From assembly GCA_036339465.1 (NCBI GenBank), contig JAYZAY010000027.1, positions 1 to 38,733 on the forward strand: a DNA stretch of 38,733 nucleotides, in the 5' to 3' direction. Source of the DNA: Myxococcota bacterium. Its GTDB lineage: Bacteria; Myxococcota; XYA12-FULL-58-9; JABJBS01. Positions 28,165-31,716 of the stretch are shown here, piece by piece. Positions within the stretch are counted from its first letter, which is position 1. Every line of letters starts with the position of its first letter. The notes beneath the pieces are model-generated. The model worked only from the letters and a program-made list of their open reading frames with translations. It had not been told where the DNA came from and did no database searches. Position numbers and translations under genes: made by a program.

Positions 28165-28557
28165 CTATGCTTCGATTGAGTTCTGTTTTCTTCGCGTAAC
28201 GAAGGGGATGAGCCCGAGTAGAAACCAAGGTAATATTGGAGCTTGTTGGCAACCACTCTCTTCGTCTGTTTCGGCTTGTCCCCTTGGCTGGTAGAAGTCG
28301 ATGTGGGTATCAGAGTCCAAAGCCCAGCCACTTTCACTGAACCACATCGATACGAGAAGATATAGCTCATTTTCGATGGACGTGAGACCTTCGGCAGGAA
28401 TGGAGAGTCCTCGGTTGCTTTCCACTTGTGAGTTGCGTTTTGATTTTTGACCTACGGTCCTCGCATCGGTAATGATACCTCCTCCAGCTAGGGCGGGGGC
28501 GGTAAAAGACAGGCCAAAGCATGTACAGAACAAGAGGATAATGGATTTCCTCAACAT
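28165..28557 (-). CDS. Small exported protein with MYXO-CTERM-like C-terminal sorting signal
   Basis: Signal peptide (..APALA) and C-terminus ESGCQQAP-ILPWFLLGLIPFV-TRRK (GC, hydrophobic helix, basic cluster). Confidence 0.7.
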   Translation of the reverse strand: MLRKSIILLFCTCFGLSFTAPALAGGGIITDARTVGQKSKRNSQVESNRGLSIPAEGLTSIENELYLLVSMWFSESGWALDSDTHIDFYQPRGQAETDEESGCQQAPILPWFLLGLIPFVTRRKQNSIEA

Positions 28558-29324
28558 GATTCACTCACTTCATCCACCACGCTGATTTTGGGCGACTCAC
28601 AACGCCAGTGGATAGCTACTGTTAGATGATACGGGATCGTGTCTGAAGTCTCTTCTGATTCGAGAAGTGCAAGCGCCCTTTCAAGCGTATCGAGACTCAG
28701 ACGATATCGATTAGAGTCGGCCAGACAATCGAATTGTGACATAATTGCCATGTCTTTTTCGTCACCGCTCACTTTTTGGAGAGAAGCTTCTTTTACCAAT
28801 TCTAGAATAGAATCGTTTTCGCTCAGGTTCTCTTTTTTATCCCGTGAAGTTCCTACTATTAAAACGGACTGGTGGTAAAGCCTAGTTTGAGCTGCAACAT
28901 TCGTAATTTTTAGAAGTTCTTCAAAGAGGCTCTGGAATTGGTTTGGCCGTAAGGCTCGAATGGTTGTGGGGCTTAACCGAAAGGTCTTGATCCATACCCT
29001 GGAAAGGCCGTGGCTTTCAGCCCCATGAAGGGAAGATAGCCCCGCGTTCAGAGATGGAAGAATGTACCGCTGGAGAAAGGTCATCATCCCCTCTTGTCGG
29101 ACCTGTTGATATGTCTCCGCAACCGCGAAGATTTTTCCGTCTTTCCCCTCTTGAATGAGGCCATTCCGAACGAGCCTCCCGAGCATATCGATGGAGCCCA
29201 GCCTTCCTAGGAGCTCTTGCTTGGACATGGGTGTTTCAAGGAGTGCTAAGATGAGCTCCATATTGTCCTGTAAAAGGTCGTATGCAAATTCTGACTCAAT
29301 GTTGAGTCTCTCAGCTGGCATCAT
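28551..29324 (-). CDS. Hypothetical protein with predicted N-terminal winged helix-turn-helix
   Basis: LILALLETPMSKQELLGRLG...LGRLVRNGLIQEGKDGKIFAV resembles ArsR-like wHTH domains. Overlaps both neighbours. Confidence 0.6.
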   Translation of the reverse strand: MMPAERLNIESEFAYDLLQDNMELILALLETPMSKQELLGRLGSIDMLGRLVRNGLIQEGKDGKIFAVAETYQQVRQEGMMTFLQRYILPSLNAGLSSLHGAESHGLSRVWIKTFRLSPTTIRALRPNQFQSLFEELLKITNVAAQTRLYHQSVLIVGTSRDKKENLSENDSILELVKEASLQKVSGDEKDMAIMSQFDCLADSNRYRLSLDTLERALALLESEETSDTIPYHLTVAIHWRCESPKISVVDEVSESC

Positions 29325-30535
29325 TTCCGTGCCTCGGGGAAAACTTCATAGTAAAGTTGGTGAGCAACGCTTTTTGGAGGCATCCTTGCAGAAGTTGTGC
29401 CAAAGTATTTACGGAAATCGGCCTGGGTTTCTGCACCCGAAACCAACCAGAGGGCAACTTTTGAAAGTCGGTGCATTCGTTCGCTGACCCGGCGATACGT
29501 TTTTTCGTCGGGACCGAGGTCGTCGAAAATACCCTGAACCGACTGTGTAAGCTTATTAAGGGTGTTTATGGAAATATCGTGATGTTTGGCCAATTCTATG
29601 AGTTTCGTTTTTGCGACGAGAAGATTGAATTCGCTCTCTAGCTCATCGACTTCCATCGCTTCTCGAGCGGACTTGGCAAATTGAAACTCGCGGTGGATGA
29701 ATGGGTGAACCATATGACTATCGAGTGCTTCCGGTAGGTCGTCGATGGCGCTGGCGAAAACCATGTCTCTGACGACTTCACGGAGTTTTCGAATACTAAC
29801 TTCGCTAGATCTAATAATGGCTGTTTCAATATCAGCCCTTGCTTGTCGAGTGAATCCGTAGAAATTTTTGGCCCCGAGATCTTCGGCGACTTCCCTGGCG
29901 AAGGCTTGCGATAATTCTGATATATCGTTACGACGCTCAAATAATGGGGGTAGTTGAATTTTTGCCGCAGCTCTATCGACGATATCCCTGCGGAACTCCC
30001 CTAGCTCTACCATTTCACGTAGATCGCGGTTTGTGGACAGAATGATCAATGCATCGCTTTGCTTTACTGTGTGATCGCCTACCGACCGATACTCTCGCTC
30101 TCCGAGAAAGCGTAAAAGTCTTGCCTGGTCTTGAGCCACCAAGGATTGGATTTCATCGAGCACCAGCGTGCCACCCTTTGCCTTGGCGACCAAACCGCCA
30201 TAGTCGCGATCTGCTCCGGTAAATGCACCTCTTTTATAACCAAAGAGTTGGCTTTCGAAAATGCCGTTTCCTAAATTGGCACAGTTCACCTCGACGAGCT
30301 CTCCGCCTCGTCCTAAGGCCTTTTTAGCTGCACGGTGACATGCGGACGCAATGACTTCCTTACCCGTCCCTGTATGCCCCGATAAAAGGACGACGTCTTT
30401 TGTCTTACGGAAGATAATCTTTGACGGAATTTCGCGCTTCAGATGCTCTTTTATATCCGAGCCGATGATACCTAGATCCGTGCAAACATCACCCACATGC
30501 GTGGATGCTTTATATGTGATAGTCCCCGAGTCCAT
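29321..30535 (-). CDS. Sigma54-dependent enhancer-binding protein (AAA+), no N-terminal regulatory domain
   Basis: Walker A GHTGTGKE at ~aa 53, VNCA, ESQLFGYKRGAFTGA, Walker B LVLDEI, STNRDL, FRRD. Confidence 0.93.
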   Translation of the reverse strand: MDSGTITYKASTHVGDVCTDLGIIGSDIKEHLKREIPSKIIFRKTKDVVLLSGHTGTGKEVIASACHRAAKKALGRGGELVEVNCANLGNGIFESQLFGYKRGAFTGADRDYGGLVAKAKGGTLVLDEIQSLVAQDQARLLRFLGEREYRSVGDHTVKQSDALIILSTNRDLREMVELGEFRRDIVDRAAAKIQLPPLFERRNDISELSQAFAREVAEDLGAKNFYGFTRQARADIETAIIRSSEVSIRKLREVVRDMVFASAIDDLPEALDSHMVHPFIHREFQFAKSAREAMEVDELESEFNLLVAKTKLIELAKHHDISINTLNKLTQSVQGIFDDLGPDEKTYRRVSERMHRLSKVALWLVSGAETQADFRKYFGTTSARMPPKSVAHQLYYEVFPEARK

Positions 30536-30571
30536 GAGAGGGATTTCGTCACACCTTGGCCTATAGAGTCA

Positions 30572-30620
30572 AGTTCGTAATCACGAACTCTTATAAAAAA
30601 AAGGTTCGGAATCATGAACG
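30572..30620. promoter_or_regulatory. Tandem palindromic sites (putative upstream activator sequences)
   Basis: AGTTCGTAATCACGAACT (30572-30589) and GGTTCGGAATCATGAACG (30603-30620), 31-bp period, shared core GTTCG-N-AATCA-N-GAAC. Confidence 0.65.
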
Positions 30621-30728
30621 AGTTGGATGTTGAGCAAAAAACGTCCGAATTTGGTAACATTGTGCCCAACCTCCTAACTTTTCTTGGCTTCTCTTATTTT
30701 TTTCCACCCATGTAGTTCAAAAAGGATT

Positions 30729-30745
30729 TTGGCACGGAACCTGCT
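30729..30745 (+). promoter_or_regulatory. Sigma54 (-24/-12) promoter
   Basis: TTGGCACGGAACCTGCT compared with consensus YTGGCACG-N4-TTGCW. GG at 30731-30732 and GC at 30743-30744 are 10 nt apart. Confidence 0.85.
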
Positions 30746-30755
30746 TAGTCATAAT

Positions 30756-30986
30756 ATTGTGAGCGCTGGAAATAAACTCGCTAGCTCCCCCCGGGCAAAA
30801 GCGAAAGCTTAGAACCATCGTTCATTTACGCCAAGCTTGTTTGAGCGGCGCTTTTATGAAGGTTCCAATGGGCACTGTCACAATACTGCGGCAGGGAGCT
30901 GGAATAAGAGAAGTCTACAATCGTCTGTTATTCATCGTGAGTTTCAGACAAGCGTGTACCTACGCTGTAGATGTCGCTCAAACAAT
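30756..30986 (+). ncRNA. Candidate sigma54-transcribed multi-branched structured RNA (sRNA or long 5' leader), unassigned
   Basis: The closing stem starts at the predicted TSS and encloses nested helices including a GAAA tetraloop. No RBS-supported ORF. Confidence 0.6.
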
Positions 30987-31168
30987 GTTGGCCTAATACT
31001 TATCTGGTGGTCAAAGTCTAGCCTATTCCCAATATTTTTTAAGTCAGGAAGCGAAAATCAAAAAGAACATAGGGAATTATTAAGTTGAAAATCGGTGAAA
31101 GCAGAGTTACATATACCTGGGTATCGTACTGTTAGTTTTCTGCCAATCTAATCAATGGAGCTCAAAGG

Positions 31169-31486
31169 GTGTCAAAAGTTGTACATTTGTCCAATGATGC
31201 GCATGCGCAGGCGAAAGTTTTTTGCAAGGCGCGAGGATTGAAGATGAGTGATTGGGTTGGGTGCCTGATTCTTGAGGCGATTTCTTCGCAAACTCAAGAA
31301 GCAGTAGAGCCGGAGCCTGTTCCTGTTCTGGAGGTACCCGAGGCTCCCAGGAAGAAGAAACTTCCGGAGATGGACGATACGGTACAGTCGACTGATGATG
31401 GAACACCAGTCTACGCACAACCCCCATTTTGGGCAAAGCCAAAGTCCGAACCAGAAGAAAAAGAGATCGATGTATCAACCCTCTAG
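31169..31486 (+). CDS. Small protein with predicted ribbon-helix-helix N-terminus
   Basis: GTG start with GGAG at 31157-31160. SKVVHLS-NDAHAQAKVFCKARG-LKMSDWVGCLILEAI matches the beta-helix-G-x-x-S-helix RHH pattern, followed by a Pro/Glu-rich tail. Confidence 0.65.
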   Translation: MSKVVHLSNDAHAQAKVFCKARGLKMSDWVGCLILEAISSQTQEAVEPEPVPVLEVPEAPRKKKLPEMDDTVQSTDDGTPVYAQPPFWAKPKSEPEEKEIDVSTL

Positions 31487-31627: not shown

Positions 31628-31716
31628 GCCGCCTTGGTGGAATTGGTAGACACAACGGACTTAAAATCCGTCGGGCTTAAACTCCCGTCCCGGTTCGACT
31701 CCGGGAGGCGGCACCA
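31628..31716 (+). tRNA. tRNA-Leu (anticodon TAA)
   Basis: Acceptor GCCGCCT/AGGCGGC, D-loop GGAATTGGTAGAC, anticodon arm ACGGA-CTTAAAA-TCCGT, long variable arm, GGTTCGACTCC and encoded CCA. Confidence 0.98.

Follow-up and report, generated by a model that had tools for sequence, protein, structure and literature searches.

Some bacterial small RNAs have a sigma54 promoter and an activator devoted to them, as GlmY with GlrR and CrcZ with CbrB. Qrr with LuxO in Vibrio is described in the same terms (PMC10162802). Pxr of Myxococcus xanthus is described as an ncRNA of three stem-loops that adjoins the gene of an NtrC-like activator (PxrR) and has a predicted sigma54 promoter with an upstream enhancer-binding region (PMC5684412). 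As far as that account goes, the locus analyzed here resembles Pxr/PxrR in belonging to the same phylum and in placing an ncRNA beside its own sigma54 activator gene. It lies in the window, i.e., the whole stretch of 38,733 nucleotides of Myxococcota DNA that was analyzed, and the sequencing runs that hold this stretch are marine and seawater runs.

The intergenic gap at 30536-31168 (633 nt) separates two diverging genes and contains a structured RNA. This RNA is real, conserved and non-coding, looks expressed, falls outside Rfam, and was previously uncatalogued; the published literature that was searched held no description of it. The original prediction had proposed a novel ncRNA or cis-regulatory leader at this place. 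That proposal is borne out by compensatory changes among relatives, the lack of an Rfam match, the lack of conservation of the open reading frames (ORFs), the presence of rpoN, an activator gene and palindromes, and coverage by RNA contigs. The features of the locus are the following.

28551-29324, minus strand: 257-aa gene that overlaps the stop codon of the activator gene; winged-helix plus four-stranded alpha/beta domain (model pLDDT 78.9)
29321-30535, minus strand: sigma54 activator (bEBP) gene, 404 aa (PF00158, E 2e-44)
30573-30588, no strand assigned: upstream palindrome 1, GTTCGTAATCACGAAC, 157 nt ahead of the promoter, candidate activator site
30604-30619, no strand assigned: upstream palindrome 2, GTTCGGAATCATGAAC, 126 nt ahead of the promoter
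30730-30745, plus strand: sigma54-type promoter TGGCAC-N5-CTGCT, TGGCACGGAACCTGCT, with GG at 30731-32 and GC at 30743-44
30759-30825, plus strand: domain I of the minimum-energy fold, a 5′ hairpin with closing helix GUGAGCG/CGUUCAU and a C-rich apical loop
30837-30985, plus strand: domain II, with closing helix 30837-49/30973-85, carrying arm a and arm b
30851-30910, plus strand: arm a, the conserved core rod, with P1b 30851-57/30904-10 and P1 GGUUCC 30861-66/GGAGCU 30895-900
30867-30874, plus strand: one-sided bulge AAUGGGCA between P1 and P2
30875-30894, plus strand: hairpin P2 of arm a
30913-30972, plus strand: arm b, a three-way junction with hairpins 30923-49 and 30951-66
31035-31040, plus strand: U6 run, possible 3′ end, preceded by a weak hairpin only
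31169-31486, plus strand: 105-aa ribbon-helix-helix (RHH) gene with a GTG start and GGAG at 31157-60
31628-31716, plus strand: tRNA-Leu(UAA), just after the RHH gene

The AAA+ domain of the activator begins near residue 44, so that the protein is without an N-terminal sensor domain. Its top NCBIfam rows were RtcR (185 bits) and PspF (178 bits), both far under the cut-offs. The RtcR row, as the best of these, raised the idea of a Y RNA or Rtc RNA-repair module, which was rejected, given that neither Ro60 (TROVE, PF05731) nor RtcB (PF01139), one of which such modules usually have encoded nearby, was found in this genome (G000, 92.8% complete). The 257-aa protein had no match in Pfam or NCBIfam, and Foldseek against the PDB gave no fold match at E≤0.001. 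It is co-operonic with the activator and could be a trans-acting partner of this sensor-less protein. A second perfect sigma54 consensus, TGGCACAACTTCTGCA, was observed at 29387-29402 on the minus strand, within the 3′ end of the activator gene and ∼63 nt before the ATG of the 257-aa gene; it was not matched by the pattern search in nine homologous loci.

On the other side of the gap, the model of the 105-aa protein showed a strand-helix-helix layout (helices 9-22 and 26-43). The top Foldseek rows were CopG, Arc, MatP and antitoxin RHH domains, with weak scores (E 0.4-2). Pfam and NCBIfam gave no family match, and searches of the protein atlas and of PDB sequences gave no useful match. The protein was found in 22/22 genomes of the order and represents a small RHH family of that order that is in no catalogued family. 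Its homologues have an invariant N-terminus, MSKVVHLS...MSDWV, and a C-terminal motif, PKKKxL ... VPVYAxPPFWA. A tRNA was also seen in the equivalent position after the RHH gene in four homologous loci.

Folding of the plus strand at 30756-30986 gave −80.2 kcal/mol, compared with −62.4 ± 5.0 kcal/mol for shuffled sequences (z −3.53; 0 of 200 shuffles as low), an outcome of the shuffled-control check that favors the original prediction. For the minus strand, z was −2.28, and 1 of 200 shuffles was as low. The longer segment 30756-31045 gave z −4.11, with domain II the same as in the shorter fold. The G-U pairs in P1 and P2 are compatible with the plus strand only, which, together with the better z-score of that strand, agrees with the earlier assignment of strand from G-U pairs.

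The secondary structure first proposed for this RNA holds at the 3′ junction but fails in the 5′ half. All of its helix strands are present at the positions given for them. For its second domain, the three-way junction TCTACA/TGTAGA with two hairpins recurs in the minimum-energy fold, with the junction shifted by one pair, and the same architecture of arm b is also predicted for six relatives. The 5′ helices fared differently in a 7-sequence alignment, where CTAGCTCCC/GGGAGCTGG was 60% paired, AAGC/GCTT 70%, and the long hairpin 40 to 50%. In the same alignment, P1 was 97.6% and P2 100% paired, and both compete with those 5′ helices. The closing stem proposed at 30756-65/30975-86 is not conserved and competes for its 3′ strand with the closing stem of the minimum-energy fold, 30837-49/30973-85. 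Indeed, ATTGTGAGCG (30756-65) resembles TTGTTTGAGCG (30836-46), and either can pair with CGCTCAAACAAT (30975-86); these two alternative closing stems were seen in this genome only, and none were seen in relatives. The most conserved feature of the RNA, the AAUGGGCA bulge, was absent from the original prediction. A tertiary pairing of UGGG with C-rich hairpin loops (CCCC in domain I, GUACCC in arm b) was considered by eye and discarded as inconsistent across families.

The conserved core, at 30861-30900 within the rod 30851-30910, has a simple plan: helix P1 of free sequence, the one-sided bulge (AA)UGGGCA, the hairpin P2 of 5 to 9 bp, and the other strand of P1, with 0 to 2 bases opposite the bulge. 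In a sequence-only alignment of the core from eight sequences (A5), 94.5% of the cells were paired versus 71.9% in shuffles. Twelve of the 13 pairs were altered on both sides; 0 of 500 shuffles matched this, and slid controls reached at most 54%. An absence of covariation among homologues would have counted against the original prediction, and these compensatory changes point the other way. Moreover, RNAalifold counted compensatory changes in 23 of 47 pairs with four sequences and in 23 of 77 pairs with seven, and predicted the closing helix, arm a and arm b for the f1 sequences.

Constrained folds gave the same layout in all 17 sequences that hold the core, with CG, UA, GU or GC as the first pair of P1. 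Sequences folded one by one showed the same plan in families f9 and f4 and a plain long rod in f3. Domain I and arm b vary considerably between families. An equivalent of domain I, with other helix sequences, is present in the genus g2 relatives, and its pairing on the column alignment is poor (41 to 50%). The domain II closing helix has counterparts of quite different sequence in relatives. The MAFFT alignments A8 and A10 misplace the 3′ part of the G000 sequence, and the cells that appear broken there are alignment artefacts.

The sole match from blastn of 30700-31170 in 41 genomes was a promoter-like stretch of 31 nt in G004, where it lies at an unrelated locus. Since this direct DNA search gave nothing useful, homologues were sought through the flanking proteins. 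The core was found in 17 sequences, comprising 14/22 genomes of one order of uncultured Myxococcota (5/6 in f1, 4/4 in f3, 1/1 in f4, and 4/4 in f9) and three metagenome contigs. It is always single-copy and upstream of the RHH gene in the same orientation (17/17), and the distance from the motif to the RHH start codon ranges from 250 to 661 nt. A covariance model of the 39-nt core built from eight sequences (R1) scored 44.9 bits at 30861-30900, with one strong copy per genome in its eight sources and weaker copies in G008 and the f3 genomes. The count of 14/22 is partly manual, because R1 missed or shortened the f3 and G017 forms, which were found by eye. No motif was seen in the other eight genomes of the order, where folK lies directly ahead of the RHH gene, and it was found in 0/129 other sampled genomes of the phylum.

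A metagenome scan with the pattern AATGGGCACNNNNGGATGGTC yielded 83 stretches, from which 80 loci were scored with R1. It added three close relatives from genus g2, with the RHH gene in each and the activator in view in two; the other 77 scored loci were chance matches. Two weak rows (L132 and L081) and G020:C219 were set aside as chance-like, since none of the RHH, activator and 257-aa genes lies near them.

The neighbours of the RNA differ among families. Activator orthologues (E≤1e-70) occur in 10/22 genomes of the order, with the RNA alongside in 10/10, and the activator-to-RHH gap measures 530 to 910 nt where the activator is present. The 257-aa gene was found in 11/22 genomes. In family f3, the RNA lies between folK and the RHH gene; here an activator orthologue was not found and there was no convincing sigma54 site. 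Genome G003 is without the RNA, yet has a homologous 150-nt region ahead of the RHH gene, which suggests that this gene has its own promoter. In G012 (family f8; L020/L031), we observed a distant activator (33% identity) and a gene resembling the 257-aa gene (28%), ∼185 nt from the RHH gene, and the RNA motif was absent between the activator-like and RHH genes. In G004, the two halves of the locus are on separate contigs (C202 and C785) because the assembly breaks in the activator-RNA gap.

A further conserved block, GATCTGTCGGACCC(C)TGATCAA, is near-invariant in f3 and f9 at ∼90 to 135 nt before the RHH start; it was seen at loci L010, L012, L013, L017, L019, L022 and L043. The stretch shared by the two families reads GATCTGTCGGACCCCTGATCAA, and in f3 repeats of CGCGATCGCAGA come before it. 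The block may serve the RHH gene as a promoter or operator.

The sigma54-type promoter at 30730-45 has the consensus TGGCACGGAACCTGCT, with the −24 GG and the −12 GC at exact sigma54 spacing, and the pattern TGGCACN5YTGCW occurs twice in the window versus 0.02 matches expected. The genome encodes rpoN (PF04552, 221 bits, G000:C11), and the activator gene and palindromes flank the promoter. The transcription start predicted from this promoter is at ∼30755-57. Ten genomes with the activator (nine relatives and this one) have sigma54-like sites 45 to 168 nt ahead of the bulge, and the −12 element is TTGA or TTGG rather than TTGC in several relatives. Both palindromes are conserved and adjoin the start of the activator gene, palindrome 1 being kept as GTCAAGTTCGAAATCACGAACC in relatives. 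The promoter, the two palindromes and the divergent activator gene go together with the RNA in 10/14 genomes.

Genome-wide, 2/142 sigma54-like sites have such a palindrome 40 to 300 nt upstream, and the site of the RNA has two. The other site is near position 15846 of contig C58 (minus strand), where GGTTCGTAGTCTCGAACC and then TGGCATATTAATTGCT lie ahead of an exported-looking 320-aa ORF whose N-terminus is signal-like. This site, too, may be targeted by the activator.

Expression was assessed from RNA-library contigs, which show sequence cover and from which true 5′ and 3′ ends, strand and abundance are not readable. Run X19 contains a 153-nt contig on 30770-30919 with 0 mismatches. Run X20, from another study, contains a 260-nt contig of a strain variant on 30771-30995 and a separate contig on 31156-31301, and run X17 covers 31212-31378. 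None of these three RNA runs covers 30300-30769, which the DNA run X1 spans. The X19 and X20 contigs both begin at 30770/71, 14 to 15 nt past the predicted start, although contigs do not show true ends. With the DNA continuing across, this shared beginning is a weak hint of a 5′ end. The gap at 30996-31155 between the two covered parts in X20 was considered as a sign of two transcripts and dismissed, as lack of cover is not evidence. The variant itself has 16 listed substitutions, nine of them unpaired, and six of the seven paired ones keep the pair; in arm b, the pair 30931/30941 is swapped from U-G to G-U.

The gap also contains small ORFs of 83, 51 and 42 aa, which were rejected as the product since tblastn against 14 homologous loci gave a best E of 0.74. 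This includes the open 83-aa ORF at 30837-31088, which the original prediction had named as the alternative product and whose translation is not conserved in relatives. With Rfam 15, the gathering scan of the window returned the tRNA only, the scan of 30500-31250 at E≤10 gave a single row, to let-7 (E 0.46), located ahead of the promoter, and nine homologous loci at E≤5 returned tRNAs only. The match to a known family that would have counted against the original prediction was thus not found in Rfam 15, either for the RNA or for the nine homologous loci. A 6S RNA identity (RF00013) was likewise rejected: there was no match at the RNA locus, and the canonical 6S RNA of the genome is at C43:22592-22782 (81 bits).

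Our preferred reading, held tentatively as falling a little short of an even chance, is that of an activator- and sigma54-dependent small RNA in which the UGGGCA bulge-hairpin serves as a docking site. Transcription would run rightward from the promoter at 30730-45, starting near 30756, and give an RNA of ∼230 to 285 nt. The divergently encoded sensor-less activator would switch this promoter on, probably by binding the two palindromes of the GTTCG-N6-CGAAC type, 126 and 157 nt upstream. The predicted RNA would consist of a 5′ hairpin (domain I) and the branched domain II, whose arm a rod would present the invariant one-sided bulge (AA)UGGGCA beside a hairpin. In this reading, the bulge-hairpin may specifically dock a partner (a protein or a second RNA), and the transcript may be a discrete small RNA acting in trans. 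This reading is favored because the anatomy matches that of small RNAs whose genes adjoin that of their own sigma54 activator. In favor of a discrete RNA, U-runs follow the structured domain directly in G002 (U6), in G005 (U8) and in three f3 genomes (hairpin plus U5), and G003 keeps the RHH-proximal region without the RNA. Against a small RNA, the terminator scan of the window called no terminator-like site at 30986-31168, the U6 run at 31035-40 included, and the −12 element deviates in several relatives. Also against it, the RHH gene follows the RNA in the same orientation in 17/17 cases, even in f3 without an activator orthologue. A cis link between the two would explain that persistence at least equally well, which keeps the possibility of a leader close behind. 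The sequences are kin, and the shared position may be simply inherited.

As such a leader, the structured RNA would be the 5′ part of the RHH mRNA and control the RHH gene, which is possible at a lower probability. The bulge-hairpin could then be bound by the RHH protein, another protein or a small ligand, and downstream terminator-like elements would set read-through or mRNA stability. Its position on the same strand, 250 to 661 nt ahead of the gene, holds in two upstream contexts, i.e., a divergent activator or folK in tandem. Several relatives have attenuator-like hairpin-plus-U-run elements between RNA and gene, no terminator was called in the window, and there is precedent in Aca2 and Aca1, DNA-binding regulators reported to bind structured RNA also in their own 5′ UTR (bioRxiv 10.64898/2026.07.27.740549). 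However, the RHH gene is without the RNA in 8/22 genomes, G003 has the gene-proximal region but not the RNA, and the spacing up to the start codon is large and varies. The f3/f9 block ∼90 to 135 nt before the gene resembles a separate promoter or operator, and in G002 the U-run comes after the entire closing helix of domain II, which leaves no obvious alternative fold. That the bulge-hairpin is a specific receptor for the downstream-encoded RHH protein or a small ligand, and the locus a new kind of riboregulator, is unlikely. If true, an RNA driven by sigma54 and the activator would titrate or gate the DNA-binding RHH protein, and genes under RHH control would thereby respond to an enhancer-dependent signal.

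We consider it quite unlikely that the RNA is real and has no regulatory function of its own, being instead a stable processing product or protective 5′ structure of a sigma54 transcript, or a terminator region that insulates the divergent genes from each other. The narrow distribution (14/22 genomes of one order and 0/129 others in the phylum), the large differences in domain I and arm b between families, and the finding of no target or partner would fit this. However, six invariant bases in the bulge, UGGGC(A), flanked by freely covarying helices in four families, are unexpected for a mere stabilizer, and a dedicated activator and promoter serve the RNA in 10 genomes. It is very improbable that the stretch acts at the level of DNA (e.g., as a palindrome bound by a protein or as the remnant of a mobile element) or encodes a small protein. 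To this one may credit the open 83-aa frame at 30837-31088 and a minus strand that beats shuffles somewhat (z −2.28). Against it, the helices differ completely in sequence among relatives yet remain complementary, and their G-U pairs suit a single strand; the genome has just one copy of the element, relatives do not keep the ORFs, and the stretch is covered by RNA-library contigs.

Under the preferred reading of a small RNA beside its sigma54 activator, the locus offers a testable recognition element, namely an invariant one-sided bulge between covarying helices, and a candidate family for RNA catalogues. It is also a small defined system for a heterologous host, with a sensor-less activator, a partner protein, palindromes, a promoter and the RNA. 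The narrow distribution limits its wider impact for now.

Compared with described systems, this RNA belongs to a known kind but forms a new family; within the range of the searches, it occurs in a single order of uncultured Myxococcota. Two regulators resemble it at the level of a structured RNA upstream of a small DNA-binding regulator gene: Aca2 and Aca1 are HTH proteins of phage anti-CRISPR operons whose motifs overlap the ribosome binding site (bioRxiv 10.64898/2026.07.27.740549). In contrast, the motif here is 250 to 661 nt from the start codon, the protein is of the RHH type, and its RNA binding is hypothetical. The f3 element, a long and mostly double-stranded rod, recalls 6S RNA, from which it differs in the absence of a two-sided central bubble. 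Qrr, GlmY and CrcZ are short Hfq-dependent base-pairing RNAs or protein decoys with repeated motifs, whereas the RNA here has a single conserved bulge-hairpin and no repeats. Pxr, compared through its published description only, differs from this RNA of 230 to 285 nt with its branched domain and UGGGCA bulge, and no Rfam or sequence link between the two was found. In that same description, the activator of Pxr is encoded upstream in tandem, whereas the activator here is divergent and without a receiver domain. Small RNAs beside their own sigma54 activator, such as Qrr and Pxr, head major behavioural switches. At the present locus, an RNA unrelated to them would be wired in the same way, and marine metagenomes are the sole source from which its lineage is known.
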